Translations under genes and position numbers: made by a program | In this document: one piece after another, positions 1 through 41,924 of the stretch | How the letters are laid out: every line of letters begins with the position of its first letter | Position numbering within the stretch: position 1 is the first letter of the stretch | From: a bacterium | GTDB taxonomy: Bacteria; DUMJ01 | Assembly: GCA_014360335.1 (NCBI GenBank) | Contig: JACIXS010000100.1 | Coordinates: forward strand, 24,431 to 88,430 | Direction: 5' to 3' | Length of the DNA stretch: 64,000 bases | Notes under the pieces: generated by a model | What the model saw: only the letters and a program-made list of their open reading frames with translations | Databases searched by the model: none | What the model was told of the DNA's origin: nothing

Positions 1-926
<926 letters not shown>

Positions 927-948
927 AAAAGAACCTACAAGGATTAAT

Positions 949-3900
949 ATGAGTAATTTTACTAAGATCCAGATAAAACTTGCTTCTCCAGAGAAGATCA
1001 GAGAGTGGGGAACTAGAAGGGTAGGAGGCCAGGTTATATATGGAGAAGTGAAAAAGCCGGAGACTATAAACTATCGCACATTTAAACCTGAAATGGACGG
1101 GCTATTCTGTGAGAGGATATTTGGTCCAACTAAGGATTGGGAATGTTACTGCGGTAAGTATAGAAAGCTAAGATACAAAGGAATAGTCTGTGATAAATGT
1201 GGGGTAGAGGTTACCTCTTCTAAGGTAAGAAGAGAGAGGATGGGCTATATAGAGCTTGCTGCTCCTGTAGCCCATATATGGTTTGTCAAAAGTGTCCCTT
1301 CTAGGATAGGGCTAGTTTTGAATATGAATTCGAAAGACTTAGAAAGGGTGATCTATTTTGCTGCTTATGTAGTACTAGACCCTGGAGATACACCTTTACA
1401 GAAGGGACAGGTATTAAGTGATGTTGAATATGAGGAATACCTGCAGAAATATGGGAATAAATTTAGAGTAGGGATGGGAGCGGAGGCAATAAGGGAACTT
1501 TTATCCGAGATAGACTTAGAAAAATTATCTAAGGAGCTGAGAAAGGAATTAGAAACTGCTAATGGTCAGAAGAAGGTCAAGATACTCAAGAGATTAGATG
1601 TAGTAGAAGGGTTACTTAAGTCTGGAAATAGACCGGAATGGATGATTTTGGAAGTGCTTCCTGTTATACCACCAGAATTAAGACCAATGGTTCCCTTAGA
1701 TGGAGGAAGGTTTGCTGTTAGCGACTTAAATGACCTCTATAGAAGGGTTATAAATCGTAATAATAGACTTAAGAAACTTATCGAGCTTCAGGCTCCCGAG
1801 ATAATCATCAGAAATGAGAAGAGGATGTTACAAGAGGCGGTAGATGCCCTTATAGATAACGGAAGGAGAGGAACAGTAGTAACCGGTTCTAACAGAAGAC
1901 CTTTAAAGTCTCTCAGTGACCTACTCAAAGGGAAACAGGGACGCTTCAGACAGAATCTTCTCGGTAAGAGGGTGGATTACTCTGGACGTTCTGTTATAGT
2001 TGTAAATCCAGAATTAAAGTTGAACCAATGTGGTTTACCTAGAGAGATGGCTCTAGAGCTCTTTAAACCTTTTGTTATGAGAAGGCTAGTGGAGCGTAAA
2101 CTGGCTCACAATATCAAGAATGCGAAACGTATGGTTGAAAGAATGCGTCCTGAGGTATGGGATGTCCTTGAAGAGGTCATAAAGGACTATCCTGTATTAC
2201 TTAATCGTGCTCCTACATTACACAGATTGAGTATCCAAGCGTTTTATCCCGTATTAGCTAAGGGAAGAGCTATAGAGATTCATCCTATGGTATGCCCTCC
2301 GTATAACGCAGACTTTGATGGAGATCAGATGGCTGTTCATGTCCCACTATCTTTAGCTGCAAGGGCAGAGGCGGAACTTTTGATGGCATCTCCCTATAAT
2401 ATACTTTCACCTGCGCATGGAAAACCTTTAGTTGCACCAACTCAGGATATGGTTATAGGTCTATTCTACCTCACTTTAGAAAACCCAAACGCTAAAGGGG
2501 TAGGGAAGATATTTGCAAGTTATGAAGAAGCTTTGATGGCTTATGAATTTGGAGAGCTAGATATACATGCACCGATAAAGATAAGATACAAAGGTAAGTT
2601 ACGTGATACTACACTTGGTAGAGTAATATTTAACAATATCCTACCTGAAGATTGGGAGTATATAAATGAGCCTCAGGACAAAAAGGCACTAGGAAATCTT
2701 ATAGAAGCTTGTTTCAAAGAGAAAGGCTATACCGCTACTATAAATCTCTTGGACGATATGAAAGAATTAGGATTTAAATGGGCTACTAAGGCAGGGCTTA
2801 CCATATCTGTAAAGGACGTTGAAATTCCAGAAGGAAAGGATGAACTTATAGCAAAGGCAGAAGAAGAGGTTGAGTCTCTAAATAAGCAGTACGAAACGGG
2901 ACTACTTACAGACTCCGAGAGATATCAAGAGATAGTAAAACTCTGGAACAATGTAACTGATACTATAACAGAAAAGATAAAGAGTAATATGACTCCATTT
3001 AATCATCTCTATATGATGACAATATCTGGAGCTAGAGGTAATATCCAACAGATAAGACAGTTAGCCGGAATGAGAGGACTTATGGCTGACCCATCTGGTC
3101 GTATCATAGAATTTCCAATCGTGCATAACTTTAGAGAAGGTTTAAGTGTAGTAGAGTACTTTATCTCTACCCATGGTGCAAGAAAGGGTTCTACTGATAC
3201 TGCTCTTAGAACCGCCGACTCTGGTTATCTTACTAGACGACTTATAGATGTTGCCCAGGAAGTTATTGTTGAAGAAAAGGATTGTGGGGATACAGAGGGT
3301 ATATACATCTATCCTTTGAAAGAAGGGGAAGAGATTATAGAACCCCTTTCTAAGAGAGTCCTGTATAGGATCTCTGCGGAGGATGTAATAGACCCTAATA
3401 CTGGCGAAATTATAGTAAGAGCTAATGAACCTATAGATGATGATAAGGCTAAAAAGATTGATTCTGCTGGGATAGAAAGGATTAGAGTCTTTTCTGTTCT
3501 TACCTGTAAGTCTAAGCGTGGCGTATGTGCTAAATGCTATGGGGTCAATCTAGCTACTAATAAACTGGTAGATGTTGGAGAGGCGGTTGGAGTTATCGCA
3601 GCTCAATCTATAGGAGAGCCTGGGACTCAGCTGACCTTAAGGACATTCCATACTGGAGGAGTAGCACTGGAAGATATAACTCAAGGTCTTCCTAGAGTAG
3701 AAGAGCTATTTGAAGCTAGGAAGCCAAAGGGTCAGGCTATTATGAGTGAAGTTTCTGGAATAGTTAAGATAGAGGAGAGTAAAGGTGTAACATATATCTA
3801 TATTATTAGCGAAGATAATATAGAAAAAGCTAGATATCAGGTTCCATTTGGAGCTAAGATTAGAGTCCAAAACGGAGATAGGGTTGTTCCAGGTACTCCT

Positions 3901-4434
3901 CTTACAGAGGGTCCTTTGAATCCTCACGAAATCTTAAGAATCAAAGGAGTGGAGGAGGTAGAAAGATATCTAGTAGATGAAGTCAAAAAGGTTTATATAT
4001 CTCAAGGGGTTGACCTACACGACAAGCATATAGAGTTAATTGTGAAGAGGATGTTACAGAAGGTAAGGGTGGATGACCCTGGAGATACCGACTTAATAAT
4101 AGGAAACCTTATAGACATAAATGATTTTGAAGCACTCCAAGATTGGGCTATTAAAAACAACTTAAAGCCCCCAAGAGGTAAAAGGGTCTTGTTAGGGATT
4201 ACTAGAGCTTCACTTACTACTGATAGCTTCTTAGCTGCTGCGTCCTTCCAAGAAACTACTAGGGTATTAACGGAAGCAGCTGTAAAGGGCAAGATAGATA
4301 CACTCTCTGGCTTGAAGGAGAACGTTATTATAGGTAACCTTATACCTGCTGGAACTGGATTCCCTGGGTATAGGAATATTGAGGTAGAAAGACTCGAAGA
4401 AGAGGAAGAAGGGGTTAGATTGGAGGATTTCTAG
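949..4434 (+). CDS. rpoC: DNA-directed RNA polymerase beta' subunit
   Basis: RpoC motifs are present ([14 protein letters not shown] catalytic loop, zinc-finger cysteines [20 protein letters not shown]). The first ATG is at 913, inside rpoB; the ATG at 949 ([15 protein letters not shown]) matches bacterial RpoC N-termini and has an AGGA 5 nt upstream. Confidence 0.9.
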
Positions 4435-4452
4435 ATAATATAGGAGGAGATT

Positions 4453-5121
4453 ATGGCTTTTATAAGTGAGAAAGACAGAAACTATTTGAGGGACGTATTT
4501 ACTAGGGAACTTGTAAATAATGTAAGGTTAGTATTCTTTACTCAAAAATTAGGACTTTTTGTCCCTGGGGTAGAGTGCGAATACTGTAGAGAAACAGGAG
4601 AATTGTTAAAAGAATTATCAGAGACATCTGATAAGATAAAACTGGAGGTTTATGATTTTATTTCAGATGAAGAGATGGTAAAGAGATATGGAATAGAAAG
4701 GATACCCGCTATTGTTATAGCTGGAGAAGAAGATTACGGGATAAGATTCTATGGAATACCTTCTGGTTATGAGTTTTCTTCTCTAATAGAGACCATTATA
4801 GATGTAAGTAAGAGAGAGACCAAGCTATCTAAAGAAGTAAAAGAGAGATTAGCTAGGATTGACAAGGATGTTGTGATTCAGGTCTTTGTAACTCCAACCT
4901 GTCCCTACTGTCCTAGGATGATCCATACCGCTTATCAATTTGCTCTGGAGAATAAGTATATAACAGCTAAAGGGATAGAGGTTATAGAATTTCCACAACT
5001 CGGGAACTACTATAATGTAAGTGGTGTTCCTAAAACTGTTATAAATGACAAAGAGGAGATAGTAGGGGCTGTTCCAGAATCTGTATTTTTAGAAAGTATA
5101 GAAAAGGCACTAGAAGAGTAA
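4453..5121 (+). CDS. Glutaredoxin-like protein disulfide oxidoreductase with two thioredoxin-fold halves (CEYC and CPYC)
   Basis: Two CXXC motifs in a roughly 220-aa protein, the architecture of thermophile PDO (PfPDO-like). A GGAGG RBS lies 6 nt upstream. Confidence 0.75.
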   Translation: MAFISEKDRNYLRDVFTRELVNNVRLVFFTQKLGLFVPGVECEYCRETGELLKELSETSDKIKLEVYDFISDEEMVKRYGIERIPAIVIAGEEDYGIRFYGIPSGYEFSSLIETIIDVSKRETKLSKEVKERLARIDKDVVIQVFVTPTCPYCPRMIHTAYQFALENKYITAKGIEVIEFPQLGNYYNVSGVPKTVINDKEEIVGAVPESVFLESIEKALEE

Positions 5122-5127
5122 TTAACT

Positions 5128-5160
5128 GAGGGCTACCAAAACTCTTTGGTAGCCCTCTTT
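5128..5160. terminator. Perfect 13-bp inverted repeat (GAGGGCTACCAAA/TTTGGTAGCCCTC) followed by a T-run; convergent or bidirectional terminator
   Basis: Seen directly in the sequence between two convergent transcription units. Confidence 0.55.
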
Positions 5161-5165
5161 GTTCT

Positions 5166-5288
5166 TTAGACATTAGCAGAGAAGGTAGCACCACAGTTCT
5201 TACACTCCCACTTAGACGGATCCCCTTTCTTTGGTAGTATCTTTGTACTACCACACTTTGGACATCTTGCTGGAGCCTTTTTACCCAT
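5166..5288 (-). CDS. Small zinc-ribbon protein, 40 aa (MGKKAPARCPKCGSTKILPKKGDPSKWECKNCGATFSANV)
   Basis: Complete ORF below the 60-aa cutoff of the ORF track. It has two CxxC pairs and a GGTGAG RBS 5 nt upstream, and sits 33 nt after the rpe stop on the same strand, just before the terminator. Confidence 0.5.
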   Translation of the reverse strand: MGKKAPARCPKCGSTKILPKKGDPSKWECKNCGATFSANV

Positions 5289-5321
5289 AACTCTCACCTG
5301 CCTTTTTATTGGACTGAAGCT

Positions 5322-5993
5322 CTAAGAGAGCTTTCTACTTCTTTTTATTATGCTGTCTAATTCTGACAGCCTTGACTTCCTATCTTTACTCCTAGTTATG
5401 GCAGAGCCTATAACTAGCATATTTACACCAAGCTCTAAAAGTTTTTCTATGTTCTCCCCGTTTATACCACCATCTACCTCTATAAGAGGAGAGATATTTA
5501 AAGCTTTACATAACCTCCTTAGGTCACTTAACCTTTTAAAGGTATTCTCAATAAATTCTTGTCCCCCAAAGCCTGGATTTACACTCATTATCAATACTAA
5601 GTCTACTTCCTTTATAATATCTTCTAGGAGAAACACAGGTGTCCCTGGATTTATAGCAATACCTGTCCTACAACCCATAGACTTTATATACGAGATGACC
5701 TTATGTATATGAGGAGTTGATTCCAAATGAACTGTTAGTAAATCTGCTCCTGCCTTTACAAATAAGTCTAAAAAATCCTCTGGAGGAGTCACCATAAGAT
5801 GTACATCCAGTAGAAAGTTGCTATTTCCTTTTATGGATTCTACAAACTGAGGTCCGAAGCTTAAATTTGGCACAAAGTGCCCATCCATTATATCTATATG
5901 TAGCCATTCTATTCCAAAATCCTTAAATTCTTCTAATAGCTCTTTGAGCTCTAATATATCTGCCGAGAGAAGGGATGGAACTATCTGTGCCAT
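5322..5993 (-). CDS. rpe: Ribulose-phosphate 3-epimerase
   Basis: HIDIMDGHFVPNLSFG and VNPGFGGQ motifs. Confidence 0.9.
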   Translation of the reverse strand: MAQIVPSLLSADILELKELLEEFKDFGIEWLHIDIMDGHFVPNLSFGPQFVESIKGNSNFLLDVHLMVTPPEDFLDLFVKAGADLLTVHLESTPHIHKVISYIKSMGCRTGIAINPGTPVFLLEDIIKEVDLVLIMSVNPGFGGQEFIENTFKRLSDLRRLCKALNISPLIEVDGGINGENIEKLLELGVNMLVIGSAITRSKDRKSRLSELDSIIKRSRKLS

Positions 5994-6808
5994 AGTTTGA
6001 TCCCTCCCTCTTCCCTAAGGTTTATGTGTTTCACCTTAATAGGTCTATTGATAAAGACAGTAGCCTTCTCTCTAAATTCATAGGCATCTCCAGTAGTAAA
6101 GAATCTAATTTCACCCGTTCCCCTTTCTGTTATACCCATTTCCTTTAATTCTTTCAATAGTTCTTCTACCGCATATACCGCTGGATCAACTATATCTGTC
6201 CTTTTTTTATACTTCTCTAATAGAATACTACTAATCTCTTCTAAGTACAAGGGATAATGACTACATCCTAAGATGAGTGTATCTATATCTGCGTTTGCAA
6301 GCGGTTCTAGATAGATGGTTAAGGCTTTAATAAGAACCTCTCTTTTTACCCTATTTTCTATAAATGGAACTAGCAGTGGTGCAGATTTTTCTATAACCTG
6401 AATATTAGGATTATATCTCTTTATGGCTAATGTATATGCTAAAGAAGATACGGTGGCTCTGGTAGCTAGGATACCTACCTTTTTAATATATCTTCTTTGG
6501 GATATCCTTTTTGCGGTAGGTTCAATAAGTCCAACTATAGGTAGGGATATAATGCTTTTTATATAACTCAAAGCCAGAGCAGAACTTGTATTACATGCCA
6601 CAAGTATCGCTTTTACATTCATCCTTTCTAAAAAGGATACTATCTGTTTCATATACCCTACTATCTCTTGAACCGACCTGTTTCCATAAGGCATATGGAT
6701 GGTATCTGCTACATATATGACGTCCTCGTGAGGAGCAATCTTCATAAGTTCTTTTAATACAGTAAGCCCCCCTAATCCTGAATCAAATATACCAATAGGA
6801 TTATTCAT
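5981..6808 (-). CDS. murI: Glutamate racemase
   Basis: GIFDSGLGGLTV at the N-terminus and a conserved CNT(S/A) region; about 275 aa. Confidence 0.9.
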   Translation of the reverse strand: MNNPIGIFDSGLGGLTVLKELMKIAPHEDVIYVADTIHMPYGNRSVQEIVGYMKQIVSFLERMNVKAILVACNTSSALALSYIKSIISLPIVGLIEPTAKRISQRRYIKKVGILATRATVSSLAYTLAIKRYNPNIQVIEKSAPLLVPFIENRVKREVLIKALTIYLEPLANADIDTLILGCSHYPLYLEEISSILLEKYKKRTDIVDPAVYAVEELLKELKEMGITERGTGEIRFFTTGDAYEFREKATVFINRPIKVKHINLREEGGIKLWHR

Positions 6809-8106
6809 CGTTTCTTCTCCAAATACTTTAATATGCCTGTTACTATTCCCCCTGCAATCTTTCTTCTATATAAAGGGTCCATAAGTAGTTTTTCTTCTAT
6901 AGGGTTTGATATAAATAGTGCTTCTACTAGTATAGCAGGTATGTTTGTATTCTTTAAAAGGAAAAATTCTGCCTTTTTAGCGCCTCTATTATATCTGCCT
7001 GTTATTTCTACTAGGGAGCTACATACCTTTTCAGCAAAGAATTTATCTTCATCTCTGTAATAAAAGACCTCTATACCGCCTGGTATAGGGGAATTAGCTG
7101 AATTGCAGTGCACACTTACTAGTATTGCAGAGTTATGATTATTTATAATTACGACCCTAGCATTTAATTCATCTCTAGAGTTTTGAGGATTTTGAGACAC
7201 GTTATAATCTCCATCTCTAGTTAGAACAACTTGATATCCTGCGGACTCTAACAGTCCTTTCATATATAGGACAATATCTAGGGTGACATCCTTTTCTTTT
7301 AATCCGCTAGGACCTATAGCCCCAGGGTCATTCCCTCCATGTCCAGGGTCTAGTATAATGATAGGCTTAGTTATTTTTTCAGGCTGTAACATAGGAAGTC
7401 GAAGTAGAATTGTTCCCGGCTCTTGTACTTCTCCTATCCGCCATTCATTCCTAATATTACCCTTTATGACGATCCTGATAGATGGAGGATATATACTAAA
7501 CTGACTTATCTTTAGTTCTATAGGAGTAGAAGTATTTATATAATTATCATACATAAGAGTTGTATTAGGTATATCTATCACTACCCTATCAGGATTGGTT
7601 AGACAGAATATTTCCGGATTTAGCTCTTTCTTATGACTGGATACTATCTTTAGAGATAGCTCTTCTAGATCAGTTTCTAGAGTAACCTCTTTTAATCTAG
7701 GAGGAAATGCTATACTAATGCCATACTCTTCTCGTTTTACTTCCTTATATCTTATAGGTCCGCTGAGATCAAAAACGACTCTTATCTTGTCATCGTTCTG
7801 CTTTGCTAACCTTATCTTTTCTATCCCAGAGGTTCCTATGGGTATTTCTACTTTATCTATATTAATATTAACTGGAAATATATCTATAAAAAACCTATAT
7901 GGATTCTGGAGGTACGAATAGTTAAACTCAAAACTACCAGATATTATTATCTTGAATATATCTCCATCTTCTGTCTTTTCCCAAGATATACCTTCTATCG
8001 GCGAATAGGGTAAAGAATAGAGAATTTCTTCGCCGTATACTAGAGAAACTATAAGTAAGGAGCTAAAAATAAAAATAACATAGAGATATATCTTTTTACT
8101 TTTCAT
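6805..8106 (-). CDS. N-acetylmuramoyl-L-alanine amidase (Amidase_3) with N-terminal AMIN-like repeats and a signal peptide
   Basis: Hydrophobic N-terminus. The C-terminal part shows an Amidase_3 signature (ILDPGHGGNDPGA ... HCNS). Confidence 0.85.
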   Translation of the reverse strand: MKSKKIYLYVIFIFSSLLIVSLVYGEEILYSLPYSPIEGISWEKTEDGDIFKIIISGSFEFNYSYLQNPYRFFIDIFPVNINIDKVEIPIGTSGIEKIRLAKQNDDKIRVVFDLSGPIRYKEVKREEYGISIAFPPRLKEVTLETDLEELSLKIVSSHKKELNPEIFCLTNPDRVVIDIPNTTLMYDNYINTSTPIELKISQFSIYPPSIRIVIKGNIRNEWRIGEVQEPGTILLRLPMLQPEKITKPIIILDPGHGGNDPGAIGPSGLKEKDVTLDIVLYMKGLLESAGYQVVLTRDGDYNVSQNPQNSRDELNARVVIINNHNSAILVSVHCNSANSPIPGGIEVFYYRDEDKFFAEKVCSSLVEITGRYNRGAKKAEFFLLKNTNIPAILVEALFISNPIEEKLLMDPLYRRKIAGGIVTGILKYLEKKR

Positions 8107-8116
8107 TTAATAATCT

Positions 8117-8469
8117 TGGTGGAGGCGGCGGGAATCGAACCCGCGTCCGAGAATGAGACGCCAAAAGGCTCCTACAGGATTAGCCTCTGTTTACTTTTCC
8201 TTCTATAGGACCCCAGAGGCAGGGCTATAGAAGTAAGCTCACCTTTAATTTCCTCTTCCCCCTGTGAGCACCGGAGGAAGAGTTAGCCTGCTAGTGTCAG
8301 GCCATTTCCTACCTCGCAGGCTAAGGTAGGAATGACCTCTGCCTATCTAATTAGGCAGCTAGTGCTAACTGATTGTCAGCAGTTATTCTTTTACCGCATT
8401 TTTACGAGCCTGCGGTGACTCGTCCTGCTCCTTTTGACCTCTCCATCCCCGTCGAATCCTTACGCCCCC
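8117..8469 (-). ncRNA. ssrA: tmRNA (SsrA)
   Basis: The minus strand reads 5'-GGGGGCGUAAGGAUUCGACGGGGAU... and ends ...GGACGCGGGUUCGAUUCCCGCCGCCUCCACCA-3'. The acceptor stem has the G3:U pair. An internal tag reading frame GCU GAC AAU CAG UUA GCA CUA GCU GCC UAA encodes ADNQLALAA. Confidence 0.92.
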
Positions 8470-8924
8470 TTATACTCTTTTAAGGCTCTTTCAAGTTCTC
8501 TTACCTTTTCTTTTTCTATAAGTAGCTTCTTTTTATCTACTAATTTTCTACCCTTTGCTAAAGCTATCTCTAGCTTAGCTCTTCCTCTTCTAAAGTATAC
8601 CTTTAATGGGATTATAGAGTATCCTCGTAATTGGCTCCTACCTGCGAGGTACTCTATCTCTTCTTTATGGAGGAGAAGCTTTCTTGTCCTATCAGGGTCC
8701 AAATTATATCTACCACCCTCTTTATAAGGTGGTATATGCATATTTATTATCCATGCTTCTCCATCCTTTATCTGTATATAACTATCTCTTAGATTACAAC
8801 TCCCTCTTCTAAGACTCTTTACTTCAGTTCCAGATAATACTATTCCTGCCTCTAATGTCTCTTCTATATCGTAATCATGATAAGCCTTTCTGTTAACTGT
8901 TACTACCTTTTCTTCCTCTTTCAA
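8460..8924 (-). CDS. smpB: SsrA-binding protein
   Basis: SmpB family (NRKAYHDY...LSGTEVKS...), 154 aa. Its stop codon overlaps the 5' end of tmRNA by about 10 nt. Confidence 0.93.
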   Translation of the reverse strand: MKEEEKVVTVNRKAYHDYDIEETLEAGIVLSGTEVKSLRRGSCNLRDSYIQIKDGEAWIINMHIPPYKEGGRYNLDPDRTRKLLLHKEEIEYLAGRSQLRGYSIIPLKVYFRRGRAKLEIALAKGRKLVDKKKLLIEKEKVRELERALKEYKGA

Positions 8925-8926
8925 GA

Positions 8927-9139
8927 CTATTCTTTCTCTCCTAAGTTAAACTTCCTTCTAAACTTCTCTACCCTTCCTTCGGTATCTACAATCTTCTGTT
9001 GCCCTGTGAAGAACGGATGACATTTAGAGCACGATTCTACCCTAAGCTCCTTCTTCGTAGAGCCCGTTGTAAATGTATTACCACAAGCACATATAACTAT
9101 CGCATCTGTATAATATGTTGGGTGTATATCTTTCTTCAT
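8927..9139 (-). CDS. rpmE: 50S ribosomal protein L31 (zinc-binding type)
   Basis: 70 aa, MKKDIHP start, CxxC...CxxC. Confidence 0.9.
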
Positions 9140-9216
9140 TTTATCTTCCTCCTTGGCTTTAAGTCCTTTCCACGTAATATTATACCATAAGTTTCAAGGA
9201 ATTTTGCCTTTTACTA

Positions 9217-10314
9217 CTAAACGTATATTCTCCTTATCCTTCCCTTTAAGTTTGTAATTATGCTGTATGGAATCTCTCCGCATCTCTTTGCTATCTCATT
9301 AGCTGAAATACTTTTCTCTCCTTGGCTTCCTATTATAACAACCTCATCTTCTAGCTTTGCTTCAGGTATGTTAGTCAGGTCAATTATCATATAATCCATA
9401 CAGATACGGCCTAAAATTGAAGCCTTTTTGCCTTTTACTAGGACATATCCATTGTTGGATAGTTGGAATGGGATACCATCTCCATAACCTATAGGGATTA
9501 TTCCTATCTTCATAGGTTTCTCTGAGATAAATGTCCTATCATATCCTACTGACCAATTATTTGGTATTTCTCTAATTGAGAGTATCTTTGACTTTAGGCT
9601 CATAACTGGTAATAGCCCTACAGGACTATCTGTCCCTATAGGGTTAATCCCATACATAGCGATACCTACTCTCACCATATCCATAGTAGTATAGGGATGA
9701 AATAGTACCGCTGGACTATTTGCTATATGCCTAATAGAGAAGAAGACCTTTTTCCTTTCTAGGGCAGATATCAACTCTAAAAATCTTCTAAACTGCAAGT
9801 CTACATACTCTTTATCTGTCCCTGCTGTGCTAAAATGACTAAAGATACCTTCTAATTTTAGATTACTTAAGCTCAATATCTCATCAATAACCTTTAACAA
9901 TTCTTCAGGTAAAAATCCAAATCTTCCCATACCTGTATCCACTTTTATATGTATAGGTATCTCTCTATCTTCCTTTTCTCCATATTTAGAAATTAGTCTT
10001 GCAATCTCAAGGTTTGATATAGATGGGGTTATATCGAAGTGTATAATCTCTTTTATATCCTTTGGGAATATATCGCCCATTATAAGAATTGGTTTTCTTA
10101 TGTTAAGTTCTCTTAGAATTATCCCCTCTTCTACATTAGCTACACCAAATCCGTCTACATTATCAAGGTGTACCGCTATATCCTTAAGCCCATGCCCGTA
10201 GGCATCTGCCTTTACAACAGCCATAAACTTTACATAAGGACCTATATACCCCTTTAGTACCTCTATATTGTGTTTAAGGTTATTAATATTAATCTCAATG
10301 ATATTTGCTTCCAT
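9217..10314 (-). CDS. alr: Alanine racemase
   Basis: PLP-lysine motif AVVKADAYGHG; 365 aa. Confidence 0.9.
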   Translation of the reverse strand: MEANIIEININNLKHNIEVLKGYIGPYVKFMAVVKADAYGHGLKDIAVHLDNVDGFGVANVEEGIILRELNIRKPILIMGDIFPKDIKEIIHFDITPSISNLEIARLISKYGEKEDREIPIHIKVDTGMGRFGFLPEELLKVIDEILSLSNLKLEGIFSHFSTAGTDKEYVDLQFRRFLELISALERKKVFFSIRHIANSPAVLFHPYTTMDMVRVGIAMYGINPIGTDSPVGLLPVMSLKSKILSIREIPNNWSVGYDRTFISEKPMKIGIIPIGYGDGIPFQLSNNGYVLVKGKKASILGRICMDYMIIDLTNIPEAKLEDEVVIIGSQGEKSISANEIAKRCGEIPYSIITNLKGRIRRIYV

Positions 10315-10360
10315 AACAAATAGTATATTACACCTAACTCCTTAAGTAAACTATCACTAC

Positions 10361-11227
10361 TTAGAGCTTTGAGATAGTTTTCTTTAACTCTAACGCCTTT
10401 TTATAGACCTGATTCCTTGGCAGATTAAAGCTCTTAGAGACCCTTTCTACAGCTTCCTTTAGGGTAATATCTTCTTTAATTATGAAGTCTACTAATAGTG
10501 CCTCTATACTTGTTTCGAGTCTATTCTCTTGTGTAGGTTTTTCTCTATTGTAGATTATTACTGTATATTCTCCAAGATTGGTCTTTGTGTCATTTTTTAG
10601 GTTTTCCAGGACGGTTTTTATATCTCCTATGTAAGACCTCTCAAAGACCTTAGTAAGTTCGCAGAAAAAACATACTGTAGCATTGGGCAGTTCTTTAGCA
10701 ATAAGCTCAGCAAGTGATATTATCCTCTTTGGTGACTCGTATAAGACTACTGTCTCTATCCCTTTTTGTTTTATATCTCTTATAATATTTTCTCTTTCTG
10801 ACTCCTTCTTAGGTAGAAATCCTAGAAATAAAAAATGTTCTATGGGTATCCCAGATACAGATAAGGCTGTCATAACAGCAGATGGACCGGGTATCGGAAT
10901 AACATCTATACCTCTTTCTCTTGCATCTCTTACAATCCTATATCCAGGGTCTGATATACACGGCGTCCCAGCGTTAGATACTAAAGCCACATCCATTCCT
11001 TTCTCTACAATATACTTTATAAGTAACTTAGACCTTTCTTCTTCGTTATATTTATGGTATGAGATTAATTTAGTCTTTATATTGTAATGCTTTAGAAGTA
11101 TCGAAGTATGCCTAGTATCTTCAGCAGCTATCAGGTCACAGCTACTAAGAATCTCTACAGCCCTATAAGTGATATCTTTCAGATTACCTATAGGTGTGGC
11201 TACTACGTAAAGTTTTCCCACCTTCAT
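10361..11227 (-). CDS. rsmI: 16S rRNA (cytidine1402-2'-O)-methyltransferase
   Basis: Tetrapyrrole-methylase fold with the RsmI N-terminus (LYVVATPIGNLKDIT...AAEDTR). Confidence 0.88.
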   Translation of the reverse strand: MKVGKLYVVATPIGNLKDITYRAVEILSSCDLIAAEDTRHTSILLKHYNIKTKLISYHKYNEEERSKLLIKYIVEKGMDVALVSNAGTPCISDPGYRIVRDARERGIDVIPIPGPSAVMTALSVSGIPIEHFLFLGFLPKKESERENIIRDIKQKGIETVVLYESPKRIISLAELIAKELPNATVCFFCELTKVFERSYIGDIKTVLENLKNDTKTNLGEYTVIIYNREKPTQENRLETSIEALLVDFIIKEDITLKEAVERVSKSFNLPRNQVYKKALELKKTISKL

Positions 11228-12015
11228 CCTCTTTCTATCAGAATGTAAAACATTTCATTTTTAAAGATGAATCTTTTTATAATCTTATATTTCTCCTTAA
11301 GGATTGGTTCAAAGGTCTTGCTGTAGTTTTCTAGCATTCCTTTTTCCTTTCCACTAATACTCTTTAGGGGAAAAGAAACTATTAAAAATTTACTATTAAG
11401 ACTGTTTAATAATTTTAAAGAAAATCCCTTTTTTATCCGCTCAGCTATAGGGAGAAACTTAAATATAAAACATATATCTGTGCGGTCTTCAATATCTTCA
11501 AAGAGAATATCCTTTCTCTTAGCTAGTCTTGGATAAGATAAGATGTCTAAGAACTTATTTATGCTTTCTATTAGCGTAGAGTCTATATCATAGGCATAGT
11601 ACAATATAGGACCCTCTATATTCATAAAAGGTATGGAAAAGGGGTTGAGTCCACAGGCTAAATCTAGTACAGAATTTGGTTTTCCAGTAACCTCAAATAT
11701 CCCTCTATATACCTCTTCATATATATCCATCCGTTCTCTAGTAGACTGATGGAGTTTTAGTATCTCTTTTGCTATTTCTCTAATATTTCTATCACCTCTT
11801 TCCAATACTAAAAGTAAGTCTTTGACTTTTTCAACATCTTTACTACCTAAGAATGCTCCATGAATCTGGTGAAGCTTACTCTTGACCGCTTTTATTAAAT
11901 CCCTTTCATTCCTATGCTTGGGCAATTCTATCTTTACTATCTCTAAGATTGTCTTTTCGTTTATGTCTTTATATTTACTAGAAAGTCTTATCCTCTCTAC
12001 AATCTCTTCAATCAT
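11224..12015 (-). CDS. FmrO/ArmA/Rmt-family 16S rRNA (guanine1405-N7)-methyltransferase homologue
   Basis: Blocks match those I recall from ArmA/RmtB/Sgm: KLHQIHGAF, HQSTRERM, VLDLACGLNPFSIP (SAM motif I), YYAYDID, and the C-terminal FLIVSFPLKSISGKEKGMLENY. 263 aa, the same length as the resistance methyltransferases. Confidence 0.75.
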   Translation of the reverse strand: MIEEIVERIRLSSKYKDINEKTILEIVKIELPKHRNERDLIKAVKSKLHQIHGAFLGSKDVEKVKDLLLVLERGDRNIREIAKEILKLHQSTRERMDIYEEVYRGIFEVTGKPNSVLDLACGLNPFSIPFMNIEGPILYYAYDIDSTLIESINKFLDILSYPRLAKRKDILFEDIEDRTDICFIFKFLPIAERIKKGFSLKLLNSLNSKFLIVSFPLKSISGKEKGMLENYSKTFEPILKEKYKIIKRFIFKNEMFYILIERG

Positions 12016-13087
12016 TGTCTTTCTCTTTTATAAGCCTTATAAGCTCGTTGTAAAAATGCAAATTATGGATAGTGGCTAGTCTAAAGGCTAGGCAATCTTC
12101 CAGTTCAAAGAGATGATGTATGTAAGCCCTTGAAAAATTTCTACAGGTATAACAGTTACAGTATTCAGATATGGGTCTTTCATCTCTAGTGTATTTTTCT
12201 TCTTTTATAAATATGTTGGAATAGAAATTCTTACTTTTCAAATCTATCTCTGAGTTAAATACATATAACTTACCGTGTCTAGCCTCTCTTGTTGGCACAA
12301 CACAGTCAAAGAGGTCATAACCAAGTTCTGCACATATAACAATATTTTCTGGTTTTCCTATCCCCATTGCATATTTGGGAAGGTTATCAGGCATTAGATT
12401 GGCTGTATACTCCAAGATATCTATTACTAAATTCCCCTCTCTATCTAGGGGCCAACCTCCAAATCCATATCCATCAAATCCTATCTCTATAAGAGAATCT
12501 GCGCATCTTTTCCTTAAATCTTTATCTTTTCCCCCTTGTATTATCCCAAATATAAGGGGACGGCTATCTTTAGGATAAATATCTAAGAGTCTATTATACT
12601 CCTCCTTACATCTCTTAGCCCATTTAATAGTGCTATCTACAGATAGTTTGTTAATCTCAAGCGGGTCATCTGGATGGGTACAGTAGTCTAGACACATTAT
12701 TATATCAGCGTCACATAGATATTGAGCCTGAATACACTTTTCTGGTGTAAGCTCTATCTTCTCCCTAGGAGATGGCCTAAAAATTATGCCTTTATCTGTC
12801 ACTGTTCCATATTTGGTATTCTCTCTTAACATAGAAAATACTTGAAACCCACCAGAATCTGTAAGAATAATGCCATCCCAGTTTATAAACCTATGTAGTC
12901 CCCCTAACTCCTTAATTACACTAATTCCAGGACTTCTCATAAGGTGTAATGTATTCATTACTATACCTTGAGTGTTAGTAGTATGAAGATCCTCTTTATC
13001 TAGAGAACGAACAACTCCATTGGTACCATCTGGGAAAAAGGCGGGTAATTCTATATATTTAGTAGGTAGTCTTAGAATCTTCTTCAT
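12008..13087 (-). CDS. tgt: Queuine tRNA-ribosyltransferase
   Basis: TIM-barrel TGT with the zinc motif CNCYTCRNFSRAYIHHL. Confidence 0.88.
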   Translation of the reverse strand: MKKILRLPTKYIELPAFFPDGTNGVVRSLDKEDLHTTNTQGIVMNTLHLMRSPGISVIKELGGLHRFINWDGIILTDSGGFQVFSMLRENTKYGTVTDKGIIFRPSPREKIELTPEKCIQAQYLCDADIIMCLDYCTHPDDPLEINKLSVDSTIKWAKRCKEEYNRLLDIYPKDSRPLIFGIIQGGKDKDLRKRCADSLIEIGFDGYGFGGWPLDREGNLVIDILEYTANLMPDNLPKYAMGIGKPENIVICAELGYDLFDCVVPTREARHGKLYVFNSEIDLKSKNFYSNIFIKEEKYTRDERPISEYCNCYTCRNFSRAYIHHLFELEDCLAFRLATIHNLHFYNELIRLIKEKDND

Positions 13088-13239
13088 AAATAATCCCTAG
13101 TATTTCTAGGTTTATTATAACATACAGGTTAAATCACAATCATCAAAACGATCACTTTTAAATCCTGCAATAGCATAAAGTTTCTCAGTATAGTATAATA
13201 AGTATCGAAAGTAAAATACTATAACGATAGGAGTGATAT

Positions 13240-38383: not shown

Positions 38384-38394
38384 GTAAAAGCTGT

Positions 38395-38575
38395 GAAGAG
38401 GAGTAGTAGCCATTTAAGGTGAACTCGCCTCAGAGCTGGATAGGTGAAATAGTAGTAGCTTATCCCGGGAATTCCCGTTATAGAATAGAGAGTGGGCTTA
38501 AAAGCCAATTAGGGTGGTACCGCGGAAAGCTTTCCGTCCCTAGCAGTTTGCTGTGGAGGGAAAGCTTTTTTATAA
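38395..38575 (+). promoter_or_regulatory. T-box riboswitch leader, with its intrinsic terminator spanning roughly 38526-38571
   Basis: Canonical T-box sequence AATTAGGGTGGTACCGCGG at 38507-38525. It is immediately followed by a terminator stem AAAGCUUUCC...GGAAAGCUUU plus UUUUUU whose 5' arm overlaps the T-box, which is the antiterminator/terminator alternation. A possible CUC (Leu) specifier lies in a GAACUCGCC context. Confidence 0.8.
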
Positions 38576-38595: not shown

Positions 38596-40260
38596 ATGCG
38601 TAGTGATGAAGTTAAAAAAGGAATTGAGAGGGCTCCACATAGGTCACTTTTAAAGGCATTGGGTATAGACGATGAGGAACTAGATAAACCTTTTATAGGG
38701 GTAATAAATAGCTATTCGGAGATAATTCCTGGCCATATACATTTGGCAAAGATAGCAGAGGGGGTAAAGGCTGGCATAAGAGAAGCAGGTGGAATTCCGT
38801 TTGAGTGTGAAACGATAGGTATATGCGATGGAATAGCTATGAATCACAGTGGAATGTGTTTTTCTCTTCCGTCTAGGGAACTTATTGCAGATAGTGTTGA
38901 ATCACTTGCCGAGGCATATAAATTTGATGGCATTGTAGTCATTCCTAACTGTGACAAGATTGTCCCTGGTATGATTATGGGATTGGCAAGGGTAAATATC
39001 CCTTCTATACTTGTCAGTGGTGGACCTATGTTGCCTGGAGAATATAACGGAAAAAGGATAGACCTTTCTACTATATTCGAAGCGGTTGGAGCTGTTGCTA
39101 GTGGTAAGAAAGATATGGAATATTTAAGAGAGCTGGAATACTCTGCCTGTCCTGGGTGTGGATCTTGCGCTGGAATGTTTACAGCAAATTCTATGAATTG
39201 TCTATCTGAGGCTATTGGAATAGCCCTTCCTGGAAATGGTACTATACCTGCAGTTGAAGCGGGAAGAATAAGATTAGCCAAAGCTACAGGAAGAGCAATA
39301 GTAAGACTAGTTAAGGAGAACATTATACCTAGTATGATTCTTACCAAGTCAGCGTTCTTGAATGGAATAGCCTTAGATATGGCTTTGGGTTGTTCCACTA
39401 ATACGATCTTGCATCTTACTGCTATAGCTAACGAGCTAGGTATCGGATTAGATTTTGACGAGATAAATAGTATAGCTGATAAGACTCCTTATCTTTGCTA
39501 CTTGAGTCCTGTAGGTCCATACTATGTAATAGACCTTTATAGGGCTGGTGGAGTTATGGCTGTTTTAAAAGAGCTTAACAAGAAAGAGCTTGTAGATAGG
39601 AATACACTTACGGTTAGCGGAAAGAAGCTAGGAGAGTTGATAGATAGTGCTGAGGTAAAAGATTATAATGTGATAAGGCCCATAGATAATCCTATAAGAG
39701 AAACGGGTGGATTATCTATACTTAGGGGAACTTTAGCTCCAGATGGGGCGGTAGTTAAGAGATCAGGAGTAGCAGAGTCTCTTTATAGATTTATTGGAAA
39801 GGCTAAGGTTTTTGATGGTGAAGACGAGGCCACAAAAGCCATATTTGGTAATAAGATAGAAAAGGGTGATGTAGTTATAATTAGATACGAGGGACCTAAG
39901 GGTGGTCCTGGAATGAGAGAGATGCTTACTCCTACATCTGCTCTTGTTGGTATGGGATTAGATTTAGATGTTGCTCTTATTACTGACGGTAGATTCTCTG
40001 GTGCTACTAGAGGATTAGCTATAGGCCATGTATCTCCAGAGGCTTGGGAAGGTGGACCTATAGCTTATGTACGAGATGGAGACCTTATAGAGATAGACTT
40101 GAATAAGAGAGAAGTGAATCTTCTAGTTGATAAGGAAGAGATTGCTAGAAGAACCTATAAGGTTCCAGAGAGTCATAAGCGTAAAGGATATCTTGGTAGA
40201 TATCAGAAATTAGTATCCTCTGCTTCATTTGGAGCAGTTATGGAGGTAAATAGAAGATGA
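38596..40260 (+). CDS. ilvD: Dihydroxy-acid dehydratase
   Basis: ILVD_EDD family with Fe-S cysteine motifs (CDKIVPG, CPGCGSC). Confidence 0.95.
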
Positions 40261-41924
40261 GATTAACCGGGGCACAGATAGTTATTGAAGCATTGAAACA
40301 TGAAGGGGTAGATGTTATCTTTGGAATCCCAGGAGGAGCAATCATTGATGTCTATGATGCCTTATATGATTCAGGTATAAGACATATCCTTGCCCATCAT
40401 GAGCAGGGTGCAGCCCATATGGCTGATGGTTATGCTAGAGCTACTGGAAGAGTAGGAGTATGTTTTGCTACCTCAGGCCCTGGAGCAACTAATCTTACTA
40501 CAGGAATAGCTAATGCTTATATGGATTCTATCCCTATAGTAGCGATTACAGGACAGGTAGCTACTCATTTGATAGGGAAAGATGCATTTCAGGAGGCAGA
40601 TACAACTGGTATTACTTCACCAATAACAAAGCACAATTATCTTGTAAAAGACGTTAATGAATTAGCCAGAATTATAAAGGAAGCATTCTATATAGCAAGA
40701 ACTGGACGACCTGGGCCTGTCCTTATAGACATACCTAAAAATATACAAACTGCTACTGCTGATTTTGATTACTCTTCTATAGAGATTGATATAAGGGGTT
40801 ACAAGCCTTCAATAACCGGACATATAAGACAGATAAAGGAAGCGGCTAGGCTTATAAATGATGCTAAGAAGCCTTGTATATTAGCTGGAGGCGGAGTTAT
40901 AACTGCAGGTGCAAGTGAGGAGCTCTTTAAATTAGCCACGAAAGCTAATATACCTGTGGCAACAACCTTTATGGGTATAGGAAGCTTCCCTCAAGACCAC
41001 CCATTATCCTTAAAATCCGCTGGTATGCATGGTAATTATGCTGCGAACTATGCCCTTATGGAGTGTGACCTACTCATAGCTATAGGATGTAGATTTAGTG
41101 ATAGGACTACTGGTAAGGTTTCTAGTTTTGCTTCTAAGGCTAAAAAGATTCATATAGATATAGACCCTGCCGAGATAAATAAGAACGTAATAGTAGATGT
41201 CCCTATAGTTGGAGATGCTAAGATTATCTTGAAAGCACTTATAGAATACGTTCAAGAGAAGAGGGAAGAGGAATGGCTAAGTTATATTATGGAACTCAAA
41301 GCTACTCATCCCCTTACATATGCAGATGGACCTACAATTAAGCCTCAATTTGTTATAGAGAAGCTCTGTGAGATAGTCCCAGATAATACAATTATAGTAA
41401 CAGAGGTAGGACAGAATCAGATGTGGTCCGCTCTATTTTTCACCCATAAAAAGCCTAGACACTTTATATCTTCTGGTGGTTTAGGAACTATGGGTTTTGG
41501 TTTTCCTGCTTCTATTGGAGCTAAGGTTGGTAGACCTGACGCGCTTGTAATCGATATAGCAGGGGATGGAAGTTTTCTAATGAACATTCAAGAACTTGCC
41601 ACTGCAGTAGAGAATAACATACCTATTAAAGTAGTTGTAATAAATAACAGGGCTCTTGGAATGGTTAGACAGTGGCAAGAGTTGTTCTATAAAAGGAGAT
41701 ATTCTGCTACTATCTTGAAAGAGGTTAATTTTGCTGAGATAGCAAAGGCTTTTGGAGCTAAGGGGATAAGGGTGACTGAGAAGGAAGGACTAGTTCCTGC
41801 TCTATACAGCGCTTTTGAATATCCAGGACCTGCGGTGGTGGATGTAGTAGTAGAACAGGAAGAGAATGTGGTACCGATGGTTCCTCCGGGTGCTCCAATA
41901 GACCAAATTATTGGAGGTAAGTAG
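40257..41924 (+). CDS. ilvB: Acetolactate synthase, large subunit
   Basis: TPP enzyme with the [21 protein letters not shown]-binding motif. Confidence 0.93.

Follow-up and report, generated by a model that had tools for sequence, protein, structure and literature searches.

An intact chromosomal tgt-rmt-rsmI operon encoding an FmrO/Rmt-family 16S rRNA methyltransferase in an uncultured Dictyoglomota-like bacterium

Acquired methyltransferases that modify 16S rRNA at N7 of G1405 (m7G1405) leave gentamicin, amikacin, tobramycin and plazomicin without activity. Antibiotic producers have been named, though without proof, as the source of these enzymes. The Sgm, Kgm, Grm and FmrO genes belong to aminoglycoside producers (PMC6283892), and the records of the tgt-linked clinical enzymes RmtD, RmtG and RmtE describe them as methyltransferases of G1405 N7 conferring aminoglycoside resistance (PMC9311965). 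A putative tRNA ribosyltransferase is encoded upstream of rmtG (PMC3904158), and a review places rmtG in an operon with rsmH, tgt and rsmI, the last spelled "rsmL" there (PMC9311965, citing Passarelli-Araujo 2019). Here we describe the tgt-rmt-rsmI operon on a stretch of 64,000 nucleotides (nt) of contig JACIXS010000100.1 (assembly GCA_014360335.1, positions 24,431 to 88,430; hereafter the window), the middle gene of which, rmt, encodes a new member of the FmrO/Rmt family that is already annotated at family level. Comparison of the gene arrays suggests that rmtG, rmtD and rmtE were captured from an operon of this type, which the window preserves in its intact form. It is fairly probable that rmt encodes an active S-adenosylmethionine (SAM)-dependent methyltransferase, vertically inherited within a coupled operon, which provides a constitutive m7G1405 mark that tunes the decoding centre, with drug resistance following as a consequence.

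The window protein has 30-35 % full-length identity to RmtC (6PQB, 6CN0, 8GHU), RmtA-H and ArmA, belongs to the same Pfam/NCBIfam family, and has the same architecture of N1/N2 subdomains and a Rossmann domain. With RmtC it shares the residues for 30S docking, SAM binding, positioning of G1405 and distortion of helix 44 (h44). Unlike the acquired Arm/Rmt genes, however, the window gene is chromosomal, has no flanking IS91, ISCR or IS26, and its product fails every allele-family model. The arrays rsmH-tgt-rmtG-(truncated rsmI) of pKP13f, tgt-rmtD2 and truncated tgt-rmtE2 have the core order tgt>rmt>rsmI in common with the window, with overlapping or nearly overlapping genes. These clinical arrays are truncated by IS91-family elements and occur on conjugative plasmids, whereas the window operon is intact, is part of the core chromosome and has no rsmH before tgt. 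The Sgm, Kgm, Grm and FmrO enzymes are of the same family and fold, with Sgm being the best structural match, but their hosts are producers, whereas the window has a low guanine-plus-cytosine (GC) content (38 %), its host is not an actinomycete, and no antibiotic-biosynthesis genes were seen among the window open reading frames (ORFs) examined. RsmI, RsmH, RsmF and RsmE, whose substrate is the mature 30S subunit and whose site of action is the top of h44 (PMC10054953), share operons or clusters with FmrO genes in the loci studied here, but have other folds, belong to other families, modify other nucleotides and are near-universal, in contrast to the patchy FmrO family.

Family, fold and functional residues of the rmt protein

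An earlier note on this DNA, made from the sequence alone, had recognised an FmrO-type methyltransferase gene at this position, and the position, length and ATG start of the ORF agree with that description (Table 1). The Pfam profile PF07091 (FmrO) matches the product with 134.5 bits (E 5.8e-39; cutoff 27) over residues 12-255 and profile positions 2-252 of 255, and both the predicted structure and the residue comparison with RmtC concur with this assignment. The generic Rmt equivalog model of NCBIfam (NF000466) is matched marginally, with 252.2 bits against a cutoff of 250. All of the RmtB-H allele-family models, which have exception cutoffs of 500-550 bits in NCBIfam, are missed by the product, the best being RmtE (147.9 against 525), and the NCBIfam results table for this protein includes no ArmA-specific or RmtA-specific model. 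Among proteins of solved structure, RmtC (E 2.6e-41) and Sgm (E 1.4e-40) are the closest in sequence, and the identical protein in NCBI (MBC7319763.1) is named as Rmt family. The SAM motif and C-terminal signature that had been singled out in the note were both located, the first at residues 116-126, where D118, C121, G122, N124 and P125 are invariant in the homologue alignment (A1), and the second, VSFPLKSISGKEKGMLENY, at residues 213-231. In the h44-distorting loop within this signature, K218, S221, K223, M227 and N230 correspond to RmtC K236, S239, R241, M245 and N248.

An AlphaFold2 model built on 28 homologues attained a predicted local distance difference test (pLDDT) value of 93 and a predicted template modelling (pTM) score of 0.90. 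It superimposes over its whole chain, comprising the N1/N2 helical N-terminal subdomains and a class I Rossmann methyltransferase domain, on Sgm (template modelling (TM) score 0.88-0.90; 3LCU/3LCV), RmtF (0.88), RmtB (0.84) and RmtC (0.73-0.80). Beyond the family the next matches are generic Rossmann methyltransferases, including SgvM, ChlM and TehB, at TM scores of at most 0.48, and membership of another methyltransferase family could be ruled out.

Nineteen RmtC residues with roles demonstrated by the 30S-RmtC cryo-EM structure and minimum inhibitory concentration (MIC) assays (PMC10054953) were mapped onto the window protein in a 104-sequence alignment. Eighteen of the nineteen are either identical to RmtC (K14, Y15, K42, H49, S91, D143, K186, R193, K218, S221, M227 and N230) or swapped for the residue of a validated enzyme (K33, H34, K45, F55, P189 and K223), and the remaining one is a conservative change (K43 to R38). 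The SAM-binding residues (RmtC Ser107, Asp160 and motif I) are kept as S91, D143 and VLDLACGLNP, and those which position G1405 (RmtC Tyr60, Lys204 and Lys236) as F55, K186 and K218; the Y60F variant of RmtC retains activity (PMC10054953). The N1 residues that dock on the 30S subunit (RmtC Lys20, Tyr21, Arg39, Lys47, Arg50 and His54) are represented by K14, Y15, K33, K42, K45 and H49, with the Arg to Lys changes also occurring in RmtE, ArmA and Sgm. The h44-distorting residues (RmtC Arg211, Arg241 and Met245) are represented by R193, K223 and M227, with Lys at position 241 also found in RmtE and ArmA. Among 95 environmental sequences, there is no variation at His54 and Asp160 (RmtC numbering), Tyr21, Ser107 and Lys204 each occur in 94/95, and only Met or Leu is found at position 245. 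The docking surface for the 30S subunit is thus as conserved as the catalytic site, which argues that the substrate is 16S rRNA and not another RNA.

Operon structure and chromosomal inheritance

The neighbours of rmt named in the earlier note, rsmI and tgt, are borne out by equivalog models, with 249.6 bits for RsmI (TIGR00096; cutoff 167.9) and 348.9 bits for Tgt (TIGR00430; cutoff 306.75), and the coordinates confirm the overlaps of start and stop codons with both neighbours (8 nt with tgt and 4 nt with rsmI). The note's wording of rsmI as the upstream and tgt as the downstream gene has to be reversed, however, as transcription runs from tgt through rmt to rsmI. Promoter-like hexamers occur upstream of tgt at 13215-13187 and 13246-13218, but a promoter and terminator scan of the region gave matches no commoner than in shuffled sequence, and the transcription unit is therefore delineated by the gene overlaps.

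Table 1. Features of the tgt-rmt-rsmI operon in the window
Feature	Position	Strand	Basis and remarks
tgt, tRNA-guanine transglycosylase of the Rmt-linked subfamily, operon gene 1	12008..13087	minus	PF01702, E 1e-108; pocket motif GGWPLD
rmt, FmrO/Rmt-family 16S rRNA methyltransferase, predicted target G1405 N7	11224..12015	minus	263 amino acids (aa), ATG start
rsmI, 16S rRNA C1402 2'-O-methyltransferase, operon gene 3	10361..11227	minus	PF00590 and a weak RsmI_C match
8-nt overlap, tgt stop and rmt start	12008..12015	minus	coordinates and sequence; translational coupling
4-nt ATGA overlap, rmt stop and rsmI start	11224..11227	minus	coordinates and sequence; translational coupling
SAM-binding motif I, VLDLACGLNPF, residues 116-126	11638..11670	minus	translation; alignment to RmtC and Sgm
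h44-distorting loop and flanks, SFPLKSISGKEKGMLENY, residues 214-231	11323..11376	minus	mapped to RmtC
Divergent intergenic region upstream of tgt, likely operon promoter	13088..13239	minus	consensus matches only, weak

The operon is situated among rpoC, rpe, an amidase gene, the tmRNA gene and smpB, rpmE and alr on one side, and a Na/Pi-PhoU transporter gene and the series rpsB-tsf-pyrH-frr-uppS-cdsA-dxr-rseP-ispG-proS on the other. The window ORFs examined around the operon showed no genes for transposases or integrases and no insertion sequence (IS) genes. The order tgt>rmt>rsmI is conserved in ten related loci, including L001-L006 and L011-L013, at 48-75 % identity, with differing outer flanks, the carriers of the trio including two metagenome-assembled genomes (MAGs; 73-75 %), several metagenomes (67-68 %) and one Dictyoglomaceae MAG (48 %). 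A scan of a genome collection with the window rmt protein alone recovered two close relatives. In a neighbour-joining (NJ) tree the window clade is monophyletic (bootstrap 0.81-0.98) and stands apart from all of the clinical enzymes. The deep branching order of this tree is unresolved (bootstrap 0.39-0.52), and no claim is therefore made on the environmental clade of origin for RmtC, ArmA, RmtB and RmtF. The ratio of non-synonymous to synonymous substitutions (dN/dS; Nei-Gojobori) is 0.10-0.15 for rmt, compared with 0.07-0.09 and 0.08-0.11 for tgt and rsmI, respectively, and rmt thus combines conserved synteny with translation genes and purifying selection in the manner of a housekeeping gene. 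The native status which the note had proposed for a gene in this housekeeping neighbourhood is in keeping with these observations, and rmt is read as a vertically inherited chromosomal gene. In neighbouring 90 %-identity clusters the named members are "Dictyoglomota bacterium" and "Dictyoglomus sp.", and the host is therefore taken to be an uncultured Dictyoglomota-like bacterium.

Were rmt a recent horizontal acquisition or a decayed, inactive homologue, its position would be uninformative on its function. The slightly lower GC content of rmt (32-34 %, against 34-40 % for its neighbours) could be cited for this, although there is no sharp break, as could its faster evolution, with 73-75 % amino acid identity to the orthologs in L001 and L002 compared to 85-87 % for Tgt and RsmI. 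Set against these differences are the same trio in relatives down to 48 % identity, by which such an origin is largely refuted, the monophyly of the window clade, the low dN/dS, the intact functional residues and the lack of mobile-element genes among the neighbours examined. Recent acquisition is rejected because of the conserved synteny and the dN/dS values, and we regard this explanation as a whole as scarcely credible.

Linkage with tgt and relics beside clinical rmt genes

The association of FmrO genes with tgt extends far beyond the close relatives of the window. In four distant homologues (33-36 % identity), which were chosen for long contigs only, tgt is located immediately upstream in 4/4 cases, with one of these loci having the order tgt>FmrO>FmrO>rsmF and, close by, rsmE together with genes for an RsmI-like protein and a YhhQ-type transporter. 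Scanning of metagenome contigs with the 28-homologue alignment yielded eighty loci, the neighbours of which were classed by BLASTP. The tgt gene is directly adjacent to the FmrO gene in 51 of these and one gene away in nine, the intervening gene being rsmI or another FmrO gene in 8/9, while six loci have no tgt, a class which requires at least 1.1 kb on both sides of the FmrO gene, and fourteen were undeterminable. Linkage to tgt is thus observed in 60/66 determinable loci, often together with rsmI and in some with rsmF and rsmE, and clustering at 70 % identity leaves 49 linked clusters against six unlinked. The gene orders include tgt>rmt, rsmI>tgt>rmt, rmt>rsmI>tgt, rmt>tgt and tgt>rmt>rsmI, the GC content of the loci ranges from 35 to 68 %, and the FmrO loci without tgt occur in ordinary chromosomal settings. 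The arrangement is not lineage-specific, and environmental FmrO genes are, as a rule, neighbours of tgt.

In the reciprocal comparison, four long contigs encoding Tgt proteins closely related to the window Tgt were examined, and an FmrO gene adjoins tgt in three of them, which include one of the cultured species Anaerobacterium chartisolvens (Clostridia; assembly GCA_003337415.1) and a 1.49-Mb contig with rsmI>tgt>FmrO. In the former (L101; QPJT01000027.1, genes 1-12888), the tgt>FmrO pair is found among three radical-SAM genes, a TylF-like methyltransferase gene, two genes for DegT/DnrJ/EryC1 aminotransferases and a glycosyltransferase gene, a cluster which could serve the biosynthesis of an aminosugar or aminoglycoside-like compound, or of a surface glycan. 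Tgt and FmrO are also fused in single chains of 643 aa (L036:3873-5801, plus strand) and 628 aa (protein P0287), with the Pfam TGT domain followed by FmrO in both; these share 59 % identity over their full length, which indicates a fusion conserved between lineages and not an assembly error. Across the same loci the pairwise distances of Tgt and FmrO are correlated (r = 0.87), a value reached by 0/999 permutations. In L009 (4192-5816), and also in L031, L052 and L063, tgt precedes FmrO paralogues arranged in tandem, with rsmF and/or rsmE after them. The second copy in L009 (P0113), as well as proteins P0106 and P0115, is without the KGM motif of the h44-distorting loop in alignment A1, and this second copy may have a different target in the decoding centre. 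Beyond the remarks on the rmtG operon, neither the general linkage of tgt and FmrO genes, the Tgt subfamily, the fusions nor a housekeeping m7G1405 is described in the literature searched.

The Tgt proteins encoded next to FmrO genes form a distinct subfamily by sequence, with ORFs in the window, in loci among L001-L090, and at L097:5146-6231 and L098:3998-5089. All 58 Rmt-linked Tgt sequences and the best 120 homologues of the window Tgt have GG-[W/Y/F]-P, with T in place of P once, where E. coli Tgt has GGLAVGE. The replaced segment matches Leu231-Ala232-Val233-Gly234-Glu235 of Z. mobilis Tgt, the peptide switch by which position 7 of the base is read. The window Tgt retains the aspartates of DSGGFQ and FDCV, Asp156, Gln203, Met260 and the zinc site, and can be read as a real tRNA-guanine transglycosylase with a rigidified pocket.

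The same subfamily is encoded beside clinical resistance genes. In tblastn searches of plasmids, the window rmt protein is 30-35 % identical to RmtE, RmtC, RmtF, RmtD, RmtB and ArmA. The rmtD2 gene lies 18 nt downstream of a complete tgt and is followed by an IS91-family transposase gene, and tgt linkage is reportedly noted for rmtD too. On the Klebsiella pneumoniae plasmid pKP13f the order is rsmH>tgt>rmtG and then a fragment of 98 aa, which an IS91-like element has cut off. This ORF (L098:5830-6126, plus strand), annotated as "SAM-dependent methyltransferase", represents the first ~70 residues of an RsmI-type TP_methylase cut by ISVsa3 and is 47.5 % identical to the N-terminus of the window RsmI, which fixes the original order as tgt>rmtG>rsmI. 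A truncated tgt precedes rmtE2, next to IS91. The relic Tgts of rmtG, rmtD2 and rmtE2 carry GGWP or GGFP and are 51-57 % identical to the window Tgt, compared to ~39 % to E. coli Tgt. RmtE (rmtE1; L091:2995-3816) falls inside an environmental clade (L019, L023, L061, L033 and L080; bootstrap 0.99) with 50 % identity to L019, and the order in this clade is rsmI>tgt>rmt where the flanks allow its determination (L019, L023 and L061), making these metagenome lineages candidates for the donor group of rmtE. No operon relics were found beside rmtC, rmtB, rmtF, armA and rmtE1 in the annotated records inspected. The intact operon in the window, together with its fragments flanking rmtG, rmtD2 and rmtE2, points to the housekeeping operons of non-producing environmental bacteria as a reservoir of the clinical genes.

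The closeness of this partnership raises the alternative that Rmt and the GGWP-type Tgt constitute a two-enzyme system acting on a shared RNA, with a native product other than plain m7G1405 plus queuosine at tRNA position 34 (Q34). N7-methylation could ready the guanine for base exchange by Tgt, the Trp-containing Tgt pocket could recognise m7G, which is cationic with a labile glycosidic bond, or Tgt could be recruited to the decoding centre of the 30S subunit. Such a system would account for the near-obligate adjacency in several gene orders, the conserved fusion, the co-variation of the two proteins, the W/Y/F-P-x-x-x that replaces the switch segment in all Rmt-linked Tgts and the co-mobilisation of the tgt-rmt pair into clinical plasmids. 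The clinical Rmts, however, work alone in E. coli, and rmtE1, rmtC, rmtB, rmtF and armA have no tgt beside them. The window Tgt also passes the equivalog model for the queuosine tRNA enzyme with its catalytic and zinc-binding residues in place, one GGWP-type Tgt occurs alone, without FmrO, and the YhhQ-type (PF02592) transporter gene near one cluster fits ordinary queuosine metabolism. The presence of rsmI-tgt-FmrO on the 1.49-Mb contig may likewise count against a shared-substrate system, and 16S rRNA presents C1404-G1405-U1406 in place of the U-G-U recognised by canonical Tgt. Considering these observations, a two-enzyme system is improbable, but if it did exist, its product at G1405 or tRNA position 34 would be a previously undescribed modification, and the clinical enzymes would represent a stripped-down half of that system.

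Predicted function and other features of the window

By analogy with RmtC, the rmt enzyme would bind the mature 30S subunit via its N-terminal domain, flip G1405 and methylate its N7 using SAM. It would be co-translated with RsmI, predicted to 2'-O-methylate the nearby C1402, also on the mature 30S subunit, so that the ribosomes of the host would constitutively carry m7G1405 alongside 2'-O-methylated C1402 (Cm1402). Tuning of the decoding centre would be the primary role of m7G1405, with resistance to 4,6-disubstituted deoxystreptamine aminoglycosides such as kanamycin and gentamicin its automatic consequence. The family, fold, functional residues, operon structure, synteny and purifying selection are matters of observation, and methylation of G1405 at N7, with housekeeping rather than defence as the selected role, is the most likely interpretation of them. 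The simplest idea for the coupling with tgt is that two modifications converging on the decoding centre are regulated together, given that Q34 of tRNA sits at the top of helix 44 in ribosome structures, while the Tgt-FmrO fusions hint at a possible, more direct partnership of the two enzymes.

Several observations weigh against this interpretation. The cutoff of NF000466 is exceeded by 2 bits only. The family is patchily distributed, unlike the universal Rsm enzymes, and the near-universal distribution expected of housekeeping rRNA modification genes was not observed, with named hits restricted to Dictyoglomota, Chloroflexota and some Bacillota; those named as Ktedonobacterales, Herpetosiphonaceae and Anaerolineae share 34-36 % identity with the window rmt protein. 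The tight coupling to a special Tgt subfamily, which extends to gene fusion, is not explained on this interpretation, and we know of no studied organism in which m7G1405 has been reported as a housekeeping mark. The homologues from Chloroflexi have been called "uncharacterized" (Nosrati 2019, bioRxiv 10.1101/712810, Fig. 1A); they are likewise environmental chromosomal FmrO genes, but from a different phylum-level lineage, and the window clade differs in its additional downstream rsmI. In E. coli, m7G1405 made by ArmA hampers the action of RsmI at C1402 and is costly to fitness (PMC3923132), and coexistence with a co-translated RsmI would thus need host-specific compatibility. The native, translationally coupled rmt-rsmI pair suggests that the two enzymes are compatible or ordered in this host.

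The family itself is not confined to the actinomycete producers and plasmids from which the earlier note knew it. Such members do exist, but among 1.84 billion representatives in public data the family accounts for 1,592 clusters at 50 % identity, 340 of them at E<=1e-30, and the majority of the 1,592 are environmental and chromosomal.

The same enzyme with the same m7G1405 product might instead be kept as an intrinsic resistance against the aminoglycosides of neighbouring microbes, with the operon merely a convenient site of expression. Every characterised family member confers high-level resistance, a patchy distribution is typical of accessory traits, and the tgt-FmrO pair of A. chartisolvens stands among genes with a possible role in making an aminosugar compound. 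The window ORFs examined around the operon, however, include neither biosynthetic nor other resistance genes, FmrO genes are linked to tgt, rsmI, rsmH, rsmF and rsmE and not to efflux or drug-modifying enzymes, and selection on rmt is about as strong as on rsmI and tgt. Aminoglycoside uptake by anaerobes is poor, and the same is to be expected of Dictyoglomus, a genus of strict anaerobes in the phylum of the nearest named relatives. Retention for the sake of defence is thus considered rather unlikely. A constitutive ribosome-tuning role is favoured because the gene keeps the company of translation-modification genes only, is under steady purifying selection and has anaerobic thermophiles among its Dictyoglomota relatives, the cultured Dictyoglomus being strictly anaerobic extreme thermophiles (PMC5167688). 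The locus poses the question of whether some phyla have m7G1405 as a natural mark of the ribosome that is compatible with Cm1402, and that of the reason for its near-constant coupling, and sometimes fusion, to a distinct Tgt subfamily, for which A. chartisolvens provides a cultured carrier.

Two further features were observed elsewhere in the window. A transfer-messenger RNA (tmRNA) gene at 8117-8469 on the minus strand (RF00023; 211 bits) starts inside the last 10 nt of an ORF at 8460-8924 on the same strand, which we take to be smpB from its sequence. If so, both partners of trans-translation would be contiguous, just downstream of rpmE and alr. A T-box leader at 38384-38544 on the plus strand (RF00230; 106.8 bits against a threshold of 93) is located directly upstream of ilvD (38596-40260), which is followed by a gene for an acetolactate-synthase-like thiamine pyrophosphate (TPP) enzyme (40257-41924), and this arrangement looks like a T-box-controlled branched-chain amino acid operon.

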